Assembly: GCA_021782495.1 (NCBI GenBank)
Contig: JAJXUV010000001.1
Span: forward strand, 374,637-438,636
From: Pseudomonadota bacterium
Lineage (GTDB): Bacteria; Pseudomonadota; Gammaproteobacteria; UBA1113
Length of the DNA: 64,000 nt
Reading direction: 5' to 3'
A program made the translations under genes and the position numbers. Shown here piece after piece: positions 1,437 through 35,936 of the stretch (its first letter is position 1; every line of letters starts with the position of its first letter). The notes beneath the pieces are model-generated. The model saw nothing but the letters and a program-made list of their open reading frames with translations. It was not told the origin of the DNA and did no database searches.

Positions 1437-2387
1437 ATGAACAAAGATTTAAAAATATATGTTTCAGGACATGGCGGTTTGGTAGGCGCGGCCTTATTGC
1501 GTCGTTTACACAATTTAGGTTTTCACAATATTGTTTACCGAAGCAGTGCAGAGCTGGATTTACGTAATCAGCAAGCTACCTTAGCGTTTTTTGCCGCAGA
1601 AAGACCGGAGGTGGTTTTTTTGGCGGCAGCCAAAGTAGGAGGTATACAAGCCAACAGCCTCTATGGTGGTCAGTTCTTGTACGATAACTTGATGATTCAA
1701 TCCAATGTGATTGAAGCTGCTCGTGTATATGGCGTAAAACGCTTGGTTTTTTTAGGCAGTTCTTGTATTTATCCTAAACTTTGTCCACAACCGATTAAAG
1801 AAGAGTATCTATTAACAGGGCCTTTGGAAGCGACTAATGAGCCTTATGCCATTGCTAAAATAGCAGGAATAAAATTGTGTGAGGCTTATAATCGTCAGTA
1901 TGGAACTCATTTTGTCTCGGTTATGCCAACTAATTTATATGGTGAGAATGATAATTTTCATTTGGAAAACTCACACGTATTACCCGCATTATTGCGAAAA
2001 TTCCATGAAGCTAAAGTAAACCGGTTATCTACCGTGACGATATGGGGAACAGGGAAAGTATTTCGTGAATTTTTACACGTCGATGATATGGCAGATGCCT
2101 GCATTTTCATCGCGCAAAAAGAAGGTTTTGATGGACTTGTTAATATCGGTACGGGCAAGGATATCAGCATAGAAGGTTTGGCTTTGTTGATTAAAGAAAT
2201 CGTAGGCTATAACGGAAATTTAATATTCGATACTTCCAAACCAGATGGTACACCCAAAAAATTGCTGGATGTGCGTCAATTGACGGCTATGGGCTGGCAA
2301 GCCAAAATATCTTTGGCCGAAGGTATTAAACAAACCTATCAGTGGTTTCTAGAATGCGAGACGGAATATGCTTTTCGCGAAGTATAG
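1437..2387 (+). CDS. fcl: GDP-L-fucose synthase (GDP-4-keto-6-deoxy-D-mannose 3,5-epimerase/4-reductase)
   Basis: 316 aa. N-terminal Rossmann motif YVSGHGGLVGAALLRR. SDR YxxxK motif (PYAIAKIAGIK). The product has Fcl/WcaG-like length and overall similarity. The stop TAG at 2385-2387 overlaps a repeat copy. Confidence 0.85.
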   Translation: MNKDLKIYVSGHGGLVGAALLRRLHNLGFHNIVYRSSAELDLRNQQATLAFFAAERPEVVFLAAAKVGGIQANSLYGGQFLYDNLMIQSNVIEAARVYGVKRLVFLGSSCIYPKLCPQPIKEEYLLTGPLEATNEPYAIAKIAGIKLCEAYNRQYGTHFVSVMPTNLYGENDNFHLENSHVLPALLRKFHEAKVNRLSTVTIWGTGKVFREFLHVDDMADACIFIAQKEGFDGLVNIGTGKDISIEGLALLIKEIVGYNGNLIFDTSKPDGTPKKLLDVRQLTAMGWQAKISLAEGIKQTYQWFLECETEYAFREV

Positions 2388-2547
2388 GGCTTGTTGACGT
2401 TTGGTTTATCGGCTGCAAAATGAGTAGAACCGGGCAAAATCATAGCAAATTTTCGTCAAATATAACTCGATATTCTCCTCAAATTTGCTATGATTTTGCC
2501 TCGGCTCCCTCATTTTTCGCTTCGACAAACCAAACGTCAACAGGCCC
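2387..2547. repeat. MITE-like palindromic element of about 160 bp, lying between the convergent stop codons of fcl and the FkbM methyltransferase
   Basis: Imperfect terminal inverted repeats: gggcttgttgacgtttggttt at 2387-2407 and aaaccaaacgtcaacaggccc at 2527-2547. Internal arms are also reverse complements (ggcaaaatcatagcaaattt / aaatttgctatgattttgcc). No ORF is present. The ends carry the dispersed 13-mer GTCAACARGCCCT. Confidence 0.45.
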
Positions 2548-2551
2548 TGGT

Positions 2552-3403
2552 TTAGCGCCATTTTATTAGTTTTTTTAAAGTAGATGCATATTTTTTGCTG
2601 CCGGACTGTAAGTGTTTAATCTCCTTGTCCAACCGAATAATTAACTCAAGCCTCTCTGCGCAAGCATGCTGTAGCATCGTATTTTCAGCGGCTAATTGAG
2701 CATTAGACTTATTCATGTAAAAAGGTGAAATAATGGTTTGTATTTTATCTTTTGAAACAAATACGCCATCTGCAAAAGCCAGCCAGCCATCCGCTGTATA
2801 ATGCATATTGAACATGCCCGCTAAAGCATAATCTTGTGCTGTTAACCACAATGCGATTTCATGAGGATCGCTTTGATTCTCGTACAAAGATACATAAATC
2901 AACTCGGCTACAATCCAAGGGCGATGTTCTTTAATAGTCTGTTTAGCGCCTTTTAATACATTTAAATCATAACCTTGCGTATCAATTTTTATCATTGAAA
3001 TTCGGTCGCTAAGCGCTTTTTGTTTGATAAAATGATCTAGTGTGATGAGATTAACCTGCTGCGATTTTATTTTATGAATATCCTCAGGGCTATAATGGTA
3101 AGCCAGCACAGAGCCAGTTGCCCGATCACTGTCACAATAAAAAGGCATGTCCCCATTTTGATCGCCTACTGCAGAATGAATCAATTCCACTTGAGTATTA
3201 TCAGCAAAATTAGATTGTAATATATTGTAATTGTCTTTATTGGGTTCAAAAAGAATAGCTTTTTGAATGTTGTTTTCTAAAAACATTTGTTTGCTAAAAT
3301 CACCGTGATAAGCACCCACATCTAAAAGAATGCTGTCTTTAGAATTCAGTGCGCCCGATTTGGTATGCTGGCTGAGCCACGATTCTAGCGAGTCAATTTG
3401 CAT
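2552..3403 (-). CDS. FkbM-family SAM-dependent methyltransferase
   Basis: 283 aa. SAM-binding motif LLDVGAYHGDFS. FkbM-type motif KIDTQGYDLNVLKG. Lies in the sugar cluster next to fcl. Confidence 0.8.
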   Translation of the reverse strand: MQIDSLESWLSQHTKSGALNSKDSILLDVGAYHGDFSKQMFLENNIQKAILFEPNKDNYNILQSNFADNTQVELIHSAVGDQNGDMPFYCDSDRATGSVLAYHYSPEDIHKIKSQQVNLITLDHFIKQKALSDRISMIKIDTQGYDLNVLKGAKQTIKEHRPWIVAELIYVSLYENQSDPHEIALWLTAQDYALAGMFNMHYTADGWLAFADGVFVSKDKIQTIISPFYMNKSNAQLAAENTMLQHACAERLELIIRLDKEIKHLQSGSKKYASTLKKLIKWR

Positions 3404-5137: not shown

Positions 5138-6268
5138 ATGATGAAAATTTTGTTTATTTATAAATCATACTACCCTGAAAGCGTTGGGGGTGTCGAGGAA
5201 GTGCTACGGGTATTAATGGCTGGCTTATCGCAGCGAGGCCATCAATGTACTCTGTTGGTAACGACGAAACAGAAAAAGGCCTATAGCCGTTTAGAGGGCT
5301 TGGTGACTATTCATTATTGTCCGATGAATATAGAGATTTCCTCCTGTCCATTCAGTTTAAGTTTTTTGAAAAAATTCCATCAATTAAAATTAGAATATGA
5401 TATTGTCAATTTTCATTTTCCTTGGCCCTTTGCAGATTTGAGTTCTTTTCTTATTCGATTACAGAAACCCTATGTGATCACTTATCATTCTGATATTATT
5501 AAACAAAAATACTTAAAGTTTATTTATACGCCATTGATGCATTGGTTTTTACGTCATGCCAATGCCATTATTGCAACTTCTGAGCAGTATCAACAATCCA
5601 GTCCAATCTTGCGCCGTTATCCAAATACCACACAGGTTATTCCACTGGGGCTGCCTGAAGGCTTAGCACAGACACAATTCGCCAAAGAATTGAGGGATTG
5701 GCAAGAACGCGTAGGACAAGATTTTTTCTTGTTTTTAGGCGTATTGCGATATTATAAGGGATTATCTTATTTACTGAATGCAGTAGAAAATACGCAAATA
5801 CCGGTCGTTATAGCGGGTTCTGGCCCTGAGGAATTAATGTTAAAAGCGATTGCTGTTCAAAAAAAGTTAAATCATGTACGGTTCATTGGCGCAGTCAGTG
5901 AAAAAGACAAGTTTGCTTTATATGCTTTATGTAAAGCCATTGTGATTCCTGCCTGTGAGCGTTCAGAAGCTTATTGTTTAAGTTTGGTCGAAGGCTTACG
6001 AGCAGGTAAACCATTAATTTCCACTGAATTAGGCACTGGCACTTCTTTTGTGAATCAAGCAGATGAAACAGGGCTGGTCGTTACTGCCAAGGATAGCCTT
6101 GCCCTACGTAAAGTACTGCTAAAGCTTCAGCAAGACGAGCATATTTGTCTAAAATTTGCGCAATCCGCGCGTAAAAGATTCTTGGATTACTTTCGTAGTG
6201 ATAGTATGATAGAAGCTTATGAAAGGCTTTTTAAGGGAATAACCAGCCAAGAAAACAAAAAGAAATAA
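5138..6268 (+). CDS. Glycosyltransferase family 4 (GT-B fold)
   Basis: 376 aa. N-terminal KILFIYKSYYPESVGGVEEV. C-terminal E(x7)E-type motif ACERSEAYCLSLVEGLRAGKPLIST. Confidence 0.75.
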   Translation: MMKILFIYKSYYPESVGGVEEVLRVLMAGLSQRGHQCTLLVTTKQKKAYSRLEGLVTIHYCPMNIEISSCPFSLSFLKKFHQLKLEYDIVNFHFPWPFADLSSFLIRLQKPYVITYHSDIIKQKYLKFIYTPLMHWFLRHANAIIATSEQYQQSSPILRRYPNTTQVIPLGLPEGLAQTQFAKELRDWQERVGQDFFLFLGVLRYYKGLSYLLNAVENTQIPVVIAGSGPEELMLKAIAVQKKLNHVRFIGAVSEKDKFALYALCKAIVIPACERSEAYCLSLVEGLRAGKPLISTELGTGTSFVNQADETGLVVTAKDSLALRKVLLKLQQDEHICLKFAQSARKRFLDYFRSDSMIEAYERLFKGITSQENKKK

Positions 6269-9834: not shown

Positions 9835-11265
9835 TTATACAGTAGTTAATAAACTTTTACTCAATTCCACTCCAAATTGATCGAAGGGATTAATTGCCCA
9901 TAATGCAGCGGCCATGACAGTACGGTGCTCATACAAAGCCAATAAAGAACCCATGATTTTGGGAGATATTTTTTCAAAAGAAAATAAATGATAAGGTTGC
10001 CCTAGGCCTTGACGCGCTGATGTTAATGCTTTAGCTTGGGCCAAACAATGTGTTGCCAATTTGTTTTGTTGCTGTGAAAAATAAATGTCAGATGTGCGTG
10101 GTAAGATAATATCTATTGGGATAAGCCGGGTTCCTTCCATCAACAGTTGTTGAAAAGTATGTTGACTATTACTACCGACACCGCCCCAGATAATTGGGTT
10201 AGTATGGTAATCTACGATTTCACCCTGCAGAGTGCGTGATTTACCGTTACTTTCCATCATCAACTGTTGCAAATAATGTATTAAATCACTTAACTGACTA
10301 CTATAAATTAATATGGCACGGCTATGTGCATCTAAAAAATTAGTGTACCAGCAATCCATTGCTGCTAATAGCAATGCTGGGTTTTGCATAAAATTTTCTT
10401 GAGCGCAGATTTCATCCATAGCGTGTGCGCCTGCCAAGAACTCTTTAAATTGATGTGTACCTATAGCCAACATCAAAGAAAATCCTATAGCAGACCATAT
10501 GGAAAAACGTCCACCCACCCAGTGATTGATTTTCAGAATATGTTTTTTCTTAAATCCTTGCTGCAATGCTTTTTCTTCATTCGCAGTAATGGCAATACAC
10601 TGATTGGCAATAAAATGAGAATCTGCATCGAGTGCGGAACACAAATTAGAAAAATTAGTGAGCGTTTCATCGGTGGTAAAAGATTTAGAAGATACAATGA
10701 ATAAACTGTGTTTTACATCAATTTTTTTTAGAGTATCTTGTAATTCCCACGGATCTAGATTGGCAATGAAGTGAAACGATAAGTCATTTATCTTATGGTT
10801 TTCTAGCGCTTTAATTAAGAACCTAGGTCCATAATCAGAGCCGCCAATACCCATATGAACAATATAACGAATCGGGTGCTCACTGCCTTCCCAAGGTTGA
10901 TGTTGATGAATTATTTCTGTTAAAGATTGCATTTTTTGTATAGAATCTGCGACAGAATCTCTCACGGTCTCTGAGTAATAATGTGGGTTGCGCAATGCTG
11001 TGTGCAATGCTTGTCGTTGTTCAGAAATATTGACTTCCTTGCCCTGTATCATCGCTTTAAAAAATTCCATCACTCCTTGTGATTGACACAAACTGGATAA
11101 AAGAGTCAATACTTCATTGGTTATATAATTGTGACTGAGATCGCAACTAATTCCTGCTGCTTCTAAATGCAATGTATACATGGGTAGGTGAAGTTTTAAC
11201 TTTTGTGCCTGTTCTTTTAGCAGAGGCCATTGTGGCGTTTTAGATAAAAGTCTCCTGGAAAACAT
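9835..11265 (-). CDS. pgi: Glucose-6-phosphate isomerase
   Basis: 476 aa. PGI signature segments [13 protein letters not shown] and [17 protein letters not shown]-terminal GVELSK. Confidence 0.8.
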
Positions 11266-21066: not shown

Positions 21067-21849
21067 GTGAAAACTTTTATCCCAGCTAAAAAACGGTTCG
21101 GACAAAATTTTTTAAAAGACAATCGCGTGGTTTCTGCTATTCTAAATGCGTTTTCCGCGAAAGCAGGACAAAGAGTGGTAGAAATCGGTCCTGGGCGCGG
21201 CGCTTTGACGCAAGCACTCTTAAACAGCGGCGCTACGGTCGATGTGGTAGAAATCGACAATGACTTGGTGGCCGAATTGCAAGCGCGTTATCCAGCGCTG
21301 CAAGGGCATTTGCACCATCAAGATGCTTTGTCTTTTTCTCTAACCCAACTGCATTTAGACCAAGAAAAAGTGCGCATTATCGGGAATCTGCCCTACAATA
21401 TTTCAACGCCTTTGTTGTTTCATCTTTTAACGCAAAAAGAGTGTATCCAAGATATGGTATTCATGTTGCAACAAGAAGTGGTGGATCGCTTAGCCGCTCA
21501 ACCTGGTTGCAAAGCTTATGGCCGTTTAAGCATCATGATGCAATTGCATTGTCAGGTACAAGCTTTATTTAGTGTGCCACCGCAAGCTTTTAGCCCTCAA
21601 CCCAAAGTGATGTCGAAGATCGTGCATTTAGTCCCTTATGAGAAGCCTTTGTTTGTGCTTGAATCGATGACGACGCTGGAAAATATATTACGTGATGCGT
21701 TCAATCAACGCAGAAAAACACTGCAAAATAGTTTAAAAGCTTATTTTACAGCGGAAGCATTGACGGCTGTAGACATCGATCCACACGGTCGCGCTGAGCA
21801 ATTGAGTGTGGCCCAGTGGGTGCGGTTGGCGAATGAATTATTCAAATAA
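21067..21849 (+). CDS. rsmA: 16S rRNA (adenine1518/1519-N6)-dimethyltransferase
   Basis: 260 aa. KKRFGQNFLKD and VVEIGPGRGALT motifs. Immediately downstream of surA, as in the conserved surA-(pdxA)-ksgA arrangement. pdxA is absent here. Confidence 0.9.
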   Translation: MKTFIPAKKRFGQNFLKDNRVVSAILNAFSAKAGQRVVEIGPGRGALTQALLNSGATVDVVEIDNDLVAELQARYPALQGHLHHQDALSFSLTQLHLDQEKVRIIGNLPYNISTPLLFHLLTQKECIQDMVFMLQQEVVDRLAAQPGCKAYGRLSIMMQLHCQVQALFSVPPQAFSPQPKVMSKIVHLVPYEKPLFVLESMTTLENILRDAFNQRRKTLQNSLKAYFTAEALTAVDIDPHGRAEQLSVAQWVRLANELFK

Positions 21850-22998
21850 ATGCTTAAAATCATATTGCCAGGGCAAAATGCTCCATTCTTTGAACTTTAG
21901 TTTTTCATCGCCAGCATACACGATGTGGCCGCATTCGTGTGGTAGTTCGCTGATGGCGTGCCATTGTTGTAATCCTTTAACGAGGTCTTTGGTTAAGGTC
22001 ATCGTGGATTTCATTTCAAAAGCCAATAATTTACCGCCGTAATCTACTAATAAATCCACTTCATGACCACTGTGATCGCGCCAATAATAAATAGGCGCGG
22101 TTTTACCTTTGGCGAAAAAAGCTTTGACGATTTCTGAAATGATAAAGCCTTCGAAAATGGCACCTCGGCTGCTGTGAATCAGCAATTGTTCCGGCGATTG
22201 TAAACCCAATAATCTGCAAACAATGCCCGAATCGTAGAAATAAAGCTTGGGCGTTTTGACCAATCTTTTCTTAAAATTATTGAAATAAGGACGTAATTTA
22301 AAAACAATATAACTGGCTTCCAATATATTGAGCCATGTATTAGCCGTTGTTTGTGATATGCCGCAAGCTTGTGCAAGTGTTGTTAAATTTAATTGTTGTC
22401 CGTGCTGACCCGCACACAAACGTAAAAACAATTGAAATTGTGAAAGGTCTTTAATGTAAATAATATCGCGTACATCGCGTTCCAAATAAGTACGAACATA
22501 CGCATTGAACCATAAATCGGTGTCCAAATTTTCTTGGTAAGGTCTAGGGTAACTGCCATGGAATAAGTATTGCCATAAAGAAACCGATTTAAAGGGTTTA
22601 AATTCTTGATAGCTAAGCGGCAGCAATTCTAAAATAGCGACACGACCTGCCAGTGTTTGGCTAATGTGTTGCGACAATAAAAAATTTTGTGACCCAGACA
22701 AAATAAAATGCCCCGCTTTTTTTTGAGTGTCGGCATATTCTTGAATGTAAGAAAATAAGGGGGGAAAACGTTGGGCTTCATCGATGATCCAAGGTTTAGA
22801 GGTTTGGGTTAAAAAACCACGAGGGTCATCTTGTATTTGTAATAGTTTGTCAGGCGATTCAAGCGATACATAATGATAATCCGGAAAAGTAGATTGCAGC
22901 AAAGTGGTTTTGCCGCTTTGTCTGGGTCCGGTTAAGGCGGTGACAGGAAAGGACTGTACCGCTTTTTTCAATGTGGGTGTGAGAAGTCGATTAAACAT
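21838..22998 (-). CDS. AAA+ ATPase with DUF4143 C-terminal domain (COG1373 family)
   Basis: 386 aa. Walker A LTGPRQSGKTT. Walker B-like WIIDEAQ. The C-terminal half is typical of DUF4143. It is one of two paralogues in the window. Confidence 0.75.
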   Translation of the reverse strand: MFNRLLTPTLKKAVQSFPVTALTGPRQSGKTTLLQSTFPDYHYVSLESPDKLLQIQDDPRGFLTQTSKPWIIDEAQRFPPLFSYIQEYADTQKKAGHFILSGSQNFLLSQHISQTLAGRVAILELLPLSYQEFKPFKSVSLWQYLFHGSYPRPYQENLDTDLWFNAYVRTYLERDVRDIIYIKDLSQFQLFLRLCAGQHGQQLNLTTLAQACGISQTTANTWLNILEASYIVFKLRPYFNNFKKRLVKTPKLYFYDSGIVCRLLGLQSPEQLLIHSSRGAIFEGFIISEIVKAFFAKGKTAPIYYWRDHSGHEVDLLVDYGGKLLAFEMKSTMTLTKDLVKGLQQWHAISELPHECGHIVYAGDEKLKFKEWSILPWQYDFKHLFE

Positions 22999-23400: not shown

Positions 23401-23486
23401 AAAAAATATAAGATGCGGTAACACACACATTTTTGATAAACTAAGTCAACAGGCCCTAAATATCATCCTAACAGGCCCCTATTTAA

Positions 23487-35264: not shown

Positions 35265-35899
35265 ATAGTTTAAGCATTATCGAAAAAATTTTTTATATGG
35301 GGCTTCCCATTTTATTTGCCATTACCGTACACGAAGTGTCGCATGGTTGGATGGCTTTGCGCTGTGGTGATCGCACCGCTAAAATGAAGGGGCGATTGAC
35401 TTTAAACCCCATTAAACATGTCGATATGATAGGCACTGTCTTGTTGCCAGGCGTACTCATTTTGATGCACGCGCCTTTTATTTTTGGTTGGGCTAAACCA
35501 GTGCCCGTGGATTGGCGCAATTTACGCAATCCTAGACGTGACATGGCTTTAGTGGCTTTGATGGGGCCTTTATCGAATTTTATCATGGCGCTTCTGTGGG
35601 GGTTTTTCCTTAAATATACTTTCGATCCCACTTCTCCCAACGGGTGGATGATCATGGCTCAAACGGGGGTGATGATCAATGTGGTGCTAATGGTCTTGAA
35701 TTTGTTACCTTTGCCTCCTTTAGATGGTAGTCGAGTAGTGAGTAGTTTATTGAGTCCACGGGCAGCCTATCAATACAATAAATTGGAACGGTATGGTTTC
35801 ATCATCATTTTAATTTTGTTATTAACCAACACCTTATCGGCGATTTTAACCCCTTTATTGACCCTCATATTACAGGTGATAGGCTGGATATATTCATAG
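35261..35899 (+). CDS. Site-2 protease family (M50) zinc metalloprotease
   Basis: 212 aa. HExxH motif (TVHEVSHGWMA) within the first transmembrane helix. Multiple transmembrane helices. Its stop TAG at 35897-99 overlaps a copy of the 13-mer repeat. Confidence 0.75.
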   Translation: MNSLSIIEKIFYMGLPILFAITVHEVSHGWMALRCGDRTAKMKGRLTLNPIKHVDMIGTVLLPGVLILMHAPFIFGWAKPVPVDWRNLRNPRRDMALVALMGPLSNFIMALLWGFFLKYTFDPTSPNGWMIMAQTGVMINVVLMVLNLLPLPPLDGSRVVSSLLSPRAAYQYNKLERYGFIIILILLLTNTLSAILTPLLTLILQVIGWIYS

Positions 35900-35936
35900 G
35901 GCTTGTTGACAAACCGAATGTCAGCAGTTTTAGGGA

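Follow-up and report, generated by a model that had tools for sequence, protein, structure and literature searches.

We analysed a 64,000-nucleotide stretch of a gammaproteobacterial genome (hereafter the window; assembly GCA_021782495.1, contig JAJXUV010000001.1, positions 374,637 to 438,636) in which a dispersed 13-mer, GTCAACARGCCCT, lies at the stop codons of fcl (GDP-L-fucose synthase) and of an M50 peptidase gene, beside a gene for an FkbM methyltransferase, and upstream of priA, plsX and fabH. These gene names were confirmed or found to be plausible. Four exact matches and three with one mismatch are present, for a total of seven, compared with 0.06 expected from dinucleotide-preserving shuffles (0/100 shuffles reached seven). 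The rarity attributed to the motif in an earlier reading of the same DNA (the original prediction) is thus well founded. Six of the seven matches prove to be the ends of short palindromic elements or of truncated elements, and the 13-mer is the terminal inverted repeat of these elements plus one base of the target duplication. The seventh match, at 5295-5307, resides inside a glycosyltransferase open reading frame (ORF), has no TA flank and is probably a chance occurrence. The window holds three full copies of a miniature inverted-repeat transposable element (MITE), designated E1, E2 and E3, and two isolated ends, at the positions given here.

2386-2398 (-), 2536-2548 (+), 23445-23457 (+) and 35898-35910 (-): exact matches to the 13-mer
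5295-5307 (-), 63498-63510 (-) and 63630-63642 (+): matches to the 13-mer with one mismatch
2386-2548 (+): E1, full copy, subfamily A; element proper 2387-2547, 161 bp
2387-2398 (+): left terminal inverted repeat of E1, GGGCTTGTTGAC
2536-2547 (+): right terminal inverted repeat of E1, GTCAACAGGCCC
63498-63642 (-): E2, full copy, subfamily A, 145 bp, inverted relative to E1
62331-62471 (no strand assigned): E3, full but decayed copy of a second subfamily (144-bp type), with ends GGGCGTGTTTAC and GTAAGCAGGCCC
23445-23458 (+): solo right end, GTCAACAGGCCC followed by TA, 29 nt upstream of priA
23470-23481: second partial right end, AACAGGCCCC followed by TA, beside the solo right end at 23445
35897-35910 (+): solo left end, TA followed by GGGCTTGTTGAC

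The element E1 fills the gap between two convergent genes exactly as had been described, with the TAG stop of fcl at 2385-2387 and the stop of the FkbM methyltransferase gene (minus strand) at 2552-2554. The only ORF that crosses it is a mechanical GTG frame of 75 amino acids. The boundaries of the palindrome, 2387-2547, were given correctly, although ‘near-perfect’ is a somewhat generous term for arms that exhibit 92% complementarity over the outer 26 nt and 74% over the inner 47 nt. The RNA fold predicted for E1 has a free energy of -92.1 kcal/mol (z = -14). The element is preceded by TA (2385-2386) and followed by TG (2548-2549), which represents a degenerate duplication. A Logan contig from the same organism (SRR13178630_122524) stops at its position 10996, 45 nt past the fcl stop and inside E1, and this is a typical assembly break at a repeat.

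Whereas E1 had been taken for the only palindromic element, there are three in the window. The match at 63498-63510 had been overlooked, and together with 63630-63642 it forms the paired ends of E2. Alignment of E1 and E2 yields 85% identity, with homology that extends exactly from AGGG to CCCT and with the central 18 nt missing from E2. The third element, E3, was found by a BLAST search with all collected elements against the window. It is situated in the spacer that separates rpmF (stop at 62319-62321) from plsX (start at 62487), has TA as its right flank (62472-62473), is 82% identical to 144-bp elements in other gammaproteobacteria, and aligns with a homologous 144-bp element of Legionella pneumophila. 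Among the partial copies noted previously, 62464-62472 is the right end of E3, and 23470-23478 is the second partial right end by the solo end upstream of priA. The elements in the window measure 141-161 bp, and family copies in general measure about 140-165 bp.

Local alignment of the two solo-end regions (23445 and 35898) with all elements revealed no significant homology beyond the tips. A possible degenerate partner, GTCAGCAG, lies 9 nt inward of the solo left end at 35898. The solo right end upstream of priA adjoins a DUF4143/AAA_14 ATPase gene (21838-22998), and a gene of this same family occurs directly upstream of rpmF (1312-2487) in a relative, L131, which suggests local rearrangement.

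Orthologous sites, target site and distribution

Three relatives (L142, L129 and L131), whose PlsX proteins are 90%, 88% and 81% identical to that of the window, were used to compare the rpmF-plsX-fabH operon. In each of them, plsX and fabH either overlap or are 19 nt apart, and the alignment gap corresponds exactly to E2. The rpmF-plsX spacing is 17-19 nt in two of the three, and E3 is absent from this spacer in all of them, such that both E2 and E3 exhibit presence and absence at orthologous sites. In the closest relative, L142, the rpmF-plsX spacer is 124 nt long (533-656) and carries an unrelated insert with a small GC hairpin; the spacer has therefore been struck independently. On this comparison, E2 and E3 entered the very short spacers of the operon after the lineage of the window had split from these relatives, and E2 replaced the C-terminal tail of PlsX. 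The E2 tip supplies the last three PlsX codons and the TGA stop at 63507-63509 (…MLS followed by RVC and the stop, from AGG GTC TGT TGA). The window protein (62487-63509) has 340 amino acids versus 343-353 in the relatives, and its N-terminus is three residues shorter than theirs, with a TTG start that is located 14 nt past E3. The fabH start, at 63665, is downstream of E2.

To survey the family, one genome per bacterial or archaeal species was scanned for both tips, with a spacing of 110-140 nt. At least 119 loci, spread over seven phyla or more, emerged from this two-end scan. The matches listed come from Pseudomonadota, Chloroflexota, Bacillota, Bacteroidota, Verrucomicrobiota, Desulfobacterota and Vulcanimicrobiota, with hosts that include Legionellales, Coxiellaceae, Neisseriaceae, Pseudomonas, Zetaproteobacteria, Burkholderiales, Dehalococcoidia, Clostridia, Bacteroidota, Verrucomicrobiota, Desulfovibrio and Vulcanimicrobiota; the counts of subfamilies, flanks, stop codons and neighbouring genes given below likewise refer to the matches listed. 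Several genomes carry at least three to eight copies, as exemplified by a Dehalococcoidia metagenome-assembled genome (MAG) with at least eight and a Neisseriaceae MAG with at least six. Viral contigs scanned with the same two-end pattern gave 0 matches, a blastn search of E1 against plasmids returned nothing related, and a metagenome scan with a 24-mer specific to E1 and E2 yielded a single extra copy. Published deletion primers for the toxin-antitoxin locus lpg2920-21 of L. pneumophila contain TTTAGGGTCTGTTGAC (PMC12457610), and therefore an element copy abuts this locus in Philadelphia-type genomes.

The flanks of the 115 copies with enough adjoining sequence define the target. The base at -1 is T in 104 copies and the base at -2 is a pyrimidine (Y) in 98, whereas on the other side A is found at +1 in 105 and a purine (R) at +2 in 98, to give the pattern Y-T/A-GGG…CCC-T/A-R. 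The element proper is therefore GGGYYTGTTRAC…GTYAACARRCCC, and TA is duplicated in a YTAR target. The check on longer copies that had been proposed for the motif, namely whether they possess terminal inverted repeats and target-site duplications, has thus found both. The tips GGGYYTGTTRAC and GTYAACARRCCC show little or no variation over 13-19 bp among 22 aligned copies, and direct reading of the tips in the window and in loci from Neisseriaceae gives GGGTCTGTTGAC. The interiors form about 30 subfamilies that have only the tips in common. The subfamily of E1 and E2 has 22 members from Legionellales, Coxiellaceae and gammaproteobacterial MAGs, and the Neisseriaceae members (L014, L038 and others) constitute a separate subfamily. 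Coding capacity is absent, as the lengths of closely related copies (145-165 bp) are separated by numbers of nucleotides that are not multiples of three.

Relationship to IS5-family insertion sequences

The ends of these elements are those of a known type of insertion sequence (IS). The 858-bp IS5-family element ISAba31 is bounded by the inverted repeats GGGTGTGTTGACACTT and AAGTGTCAACAGACCC and creates a duplication of 2 bp (PMC4776018). In plasmid NZ_KR535993.1 it reads ttTA-GGGTGTGTTGAC…GTCAACAGACCC-TAat and encodes a transposase, 248 amino acids long, that carries DUF4096 and DDE_Tnp_1 domains. Its right repeat, GTCAACAGACCC, agrees with the MITE consensus at 12/12 positions, and its left repeat is GGGTGTGTTGAC; ISAba31 and related ISs of the IS427 group share with the MITEs the 2-bp TA duplication in a TTAA/YTAR context and an inward-facing TTGACA in the tips. 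Members of the IS427 group are about 830-865 bp in length, carry inverted repeats of 13-21 bp, create 2-bp duplications, and often contain two frameshifted ORFs (PMC3281130). The window elements have ends of this description, with repeats and duplications of these sizes. However, they encode no DDE transposase, and whereas the ISs are about 800-860 bp long with one or two transposase ORFs, the window elements are only 141-161 bp. Furthermore, ISAba31 has repeats of just 16 bp, whereas the MITE arms are inverted over about 70 nt. The window elements are thus derivatives, not ISs. Ends of the IS6 or IS903 type were rejected as candidates, as these create duplications of 8-9 bp rather than TA.

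Four further plasmid-borne ISAba31 homologues (39-51% identity) have ends that start with GGG, except that the Piscirickettsia example, for which only the right end was identified, ends in ...GGAGCC; TA duplications are present at both ends in two of the four and at the sole identified end in the other two. A Legionella contig with a MITE also carries a truncated OrfA that is 55% identical to that of ISAba31, and use of this OrfA as a query recovered several ISs. Among these is a complete 802-bp IS with TA flanks (L133), whose right-end 37 nt match the E3-type MITE at 92%. The left ends of two others (L134 and L135) have 65-75 nt in common with another MITE subfamily, and three more (L138, L140 and L141) have left ends of TA followed by GGG(T/C)CTGTTGACA, identical to MITE tips. 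In a separate locus (L077, 3200-4181, minus strand), a small GIY-YIG-like ORF comes after a truncated IS427-like OrfA and before a right end of the IS/MITE type, …GAATTGTAAACATGCCC; the whole may represent an IS-derived element with a passenger gene.

Taken with their small size, terminal inverted repeats, target duplication, dispersed copies and empty orthologous sites, these shared ends bear out the MITE-like character that had been proposed. We conclude with high confidence that the repeats are non-autonomous MITEs of 140-165 bp with the ends of IS5-family, IS427-group elements such as ISAba31. The repeat is ordinary selfish DNA, not a regulatory motif. We infer that a DDE transposase of the IS427 group, supplied in trans, recognises the tips of about 13-19 bp (GGGYCTGTTRAC(A)…). 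The flanks show that insertion takes place into the TA of a YTAR target and that the TA is duplicated. At least three complete insertions (E1, E2 and E3) are recorded in the window, along with two that have been truncated.

Gene-end placement, host effects and alternative explanations

The position of element ends at stop codons and just before start codons arises because TA/YTAR insertion takes place in short intergenic spacers. The context ATAGGGCTTGTTGAC is indeed common to the stops of Fcl and the M50 peptidase, as originally observed, and the TAG of the latter (35897-35899) is the TA plus G of the solo left end. This identical A-TAG-GGCTTGTTGAC results because TA followed by the terminal G spells TAG, and no function is needed to account for it. 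Copies do lie upstream of the priA, plsX and fabH starts, at distances of 14-29 nt. Among 228 element ends, 30 carry a junction TAG that closes an open frame of 100 codons or more, and in a further 13 such a frame is closed by a TGA or TAA within the repeat. By comparison, only 3.1% of the YTAR sites in these loci act as such stops, which corresponds to a roughly fourfold excess. Such an excess is expected if insertions within genes are purged and those at gene ends are tolerated. Both ends start with GGG, so that an element inserted at the TA of a stop codon, whether TAA or TAG, rebuilds TAG, and the next frame meets the TGA within GTTGAC. With their stops rebuilt in this manner, gene-end insertions would be tolerated and would accumulate there and between convergent genes. 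Copies with convergent neighbours number 20, versus eight with divergent ones.

Several features of the elements could affect host transcripts. Each tip in every copy has a weak -10-like hexamer 16-17 nt inward of its TTGAC(A/G), to form the convergent promoter-like sites listed here for E1 and E2.

2394-2421 (+): inward TTGAC(A/G) -35-like and -10-like hexamers
2540-2512 (-): inward TTGAC(A/G) -35-like and -10-like hexamers
63506-63534 (+): inward TTGAC(A/G) -35-like and -10-like hexamers
63634-63607 (-): inward TTGAC(A/G) -35-like and -10-like hexamers

These sites are probably inherited from the promoter of the IS transposase. In addition, the rpmF-plsX-fabH transcript is predicted to contain hairpins contributed by E2 and E3, at roughly -57 to -81 kcal/mol. 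Any effects of such messenger RNA hairpins or weak inward promoters on the host are possible by-products of insertion.

The suggestion that the 13-mer is a regulator site or termination signal for fcl, priA, plsX and fabH, with the palindrome acting as a bidirectional terminator, draws on the copies 14-29 nt upstream of three starts and on two stops, and on the very stable hairpin that E1 places between convergent genes. However, every good copy of the 13-mer is the tip of a mobile element with TA flanks, and the same tips reside beside unrelated genes in at least seven phyla. No intrinsic terminator, for which a T-run would have to come after a GC-rich stem, is predicted in 2250-2700, the region that contains E1, and none coincides with E2 or E3. 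Likewise, the elements show no preferred orientation with respect to neighbouring genes (53 to 42), and relatives lack both E2 and E3 in this operon. A search of the E1 region with Rfam 15 gave no match at the gathering score; the sub-threshold matches were to plant and animal microRNA-precursor models (40-47 bits versus thresholds of at least 200), which behave as generic long hairpins. This part of the original prediction is therefore not upheld, and we regard a regulatory or termination signal as highly improbable. Other short repeats fare even worse. In favour of elements of the REP/REPIN type moved by RAYT, integron attC sites or DNA uptake sequences, the elements here are palindromic, intergenic and present in multiple copies, and GTYAAC bears a superficial resemblance to attC core sites. 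However, TA duplication in YTAR and IS5-family tips are foreign to both REPINs and attC. The attC candidate was rejected because its core sites mismatch and the copies are single, without cassette arrays. The uptake-sequence candidate was rejected because seven matches per 64 kb is a density far too low, with only one of them, a probable chance match, free of an element end. We consider any explanation of this kind to be extremely improbable.

Some observations weigh against the conclusion that the elements are simply MITEs of IS427 type. The target duplication is imperfect in all three window copies (TA/TG for E1, TA/TT for E2 and TT/TA for E3). No IS was found that matches the E1/E2 subfamily inward of the tips, the matches being to other subfamilies only, and a tblastn search confined to the 64-kb window located no IS427-group transposase. 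A search for autonomous copies among the 119 loci listed, by way of paired tips 600-1800 bp apart and of ORFs beside solo tips, likewise found none. More demanding is the behaviour of the two arms, each of about 60 nt, which co-vary so as to stay complementary, far beyond the neutral decay of inserted copies. In an alignment of the 22-member subfamily, in which the 19-bp tips do not vary whereas the inner stems co-vary, pairing is retained in 95.3% of cells, compared with 79.1% in shuffled controls and 31-52% in slid controls. Cells changed on both sides number 177, versus 52.9 in shuffled and 16-41 in slid controls. Double changes affect 31/53 pairs, and the covariation holds even for E1 versus E2 within one genome. 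Moreover, an asymmetric central core, TTTTCGTTAAATAG-N6-CTATTCGCCTCAAA, is conserved in one orientation (alignment columns 64-103). A looser, single-strand form, RAGGCR…TWACGM, occurs in 32/118 elements of several subfamilies, whereas shuffles lead to an expectation of 0.7, and this oriented core is retained across distant phyla, whereas the stems on either side of it change. One strand folds better than the other in 22/22 copies.

The covariation, the consistent strand preference in folding and the oriented core are the properties expected of a structured non-coding RNA or a cis-acting RNA element, such as an RNase III target or a stabiliser of messenger RNA, whose transposon-like ends would be incidental. 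Despite this, nothing reaches an Rfam gathering score, orientation shows no preference relative to neighbouring transcription, the copies are insertions that are absent in relatives, and about 30 subfamilies have only transposase-type tips in common. Long DNA quasi-palindromes can also gain apparently compensatory changes by template switching (quasipalindrome mutagenesis), without any RNA function. On balance, an RNA element appears very improbable, and the elements are better viewed as MITEs with IS427-type ends. Even so, arm covariation and an oriented core are not predicted by a plain ‘dead transposon’ model. Candidate causes include selection for a folded intermediate that acts on master copies, joint evolution of the long subterminal repeats and the transposase, and template-switching correction of the quasipalindrome. 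It is conceivable, but rather unlikely, that the elements propagate only by way of a folded intermediate, single-stranded or cruciform, or with the help of a conserved module that involves a host factor or RNA.

Comparison with known repeat families and significance

In general form, the elements resemble the Correia elements of Neisseria (also called CREE), which are MITEs of about 100-155 bp with long hairpins, TA duplication, many copies, and intergenic and operon-internal positions. The terminal repeat is wholly different, however. That of Correia elements is 26 bp and starts with TATAGCGGATTAAC, and the elements described here do not carry it. In addition, Correia elements are restricted to Neisseria, whereas the present superfamily spans phyla. 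Correia elements are known to be co-transcribed and to affect promoters, termination and RNase III processing (PMC11602168). The QMITE1 and QMITE2 elements of Coxiella burnetii are MITEs of a related order (Legionellales/Coxiellales) that fold into hairpins, overlap with the ends of genes and in some cases are transcribed as small RNAs (PMC5896051). Compared by description only, QMITE1 differs in its length of 300-400 bp and its variable 2-4-bp repeats, and QMITE2 in its direct repeats of 7-11 bp with variable sequence; neither is described with TA duplication or with these tips. Repeats of the REP/REPIN and ERIC types are similarly short, palindromic, intergenic, numerous and often found between convergent genes. 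However, REPINs are without target duplications and need a RAYT (IS200/IS605-like), whereas the present elements have DDE-type repeats and TA duplication. The literature searched contained no name or description for this MITE family, with the Coxiella QMITEs and an automated MITE census as the related finds. The family therefore seems to be undescribed by name, yet it is of a well-known kind.

For annotation, these results mean that the 13-mer is not a regulon motif and that its association with stops and starts reflects insertion at TA/YTAR targets. Breaks between contigs in metagenome assemblies are likewise explained by the elements. In this organism, the C-terminus of PlsX is encoded by a MITE, and two long hairpins are now present in the rpmF-plsX-fabH operon. 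The covariation of the arms poses the question of whether hairpin formation matters for the movement of very short DDE-type elements, and a requirement for a folded intermediate, if true, would be a mechanism that has not been described for IS5-family elements. More broadly, the occurrence of one IS427-type tip across about 30 MITE subfamilies in at least seven phyla should be useful for understanding how MITEs originate from ISs and how they spread.

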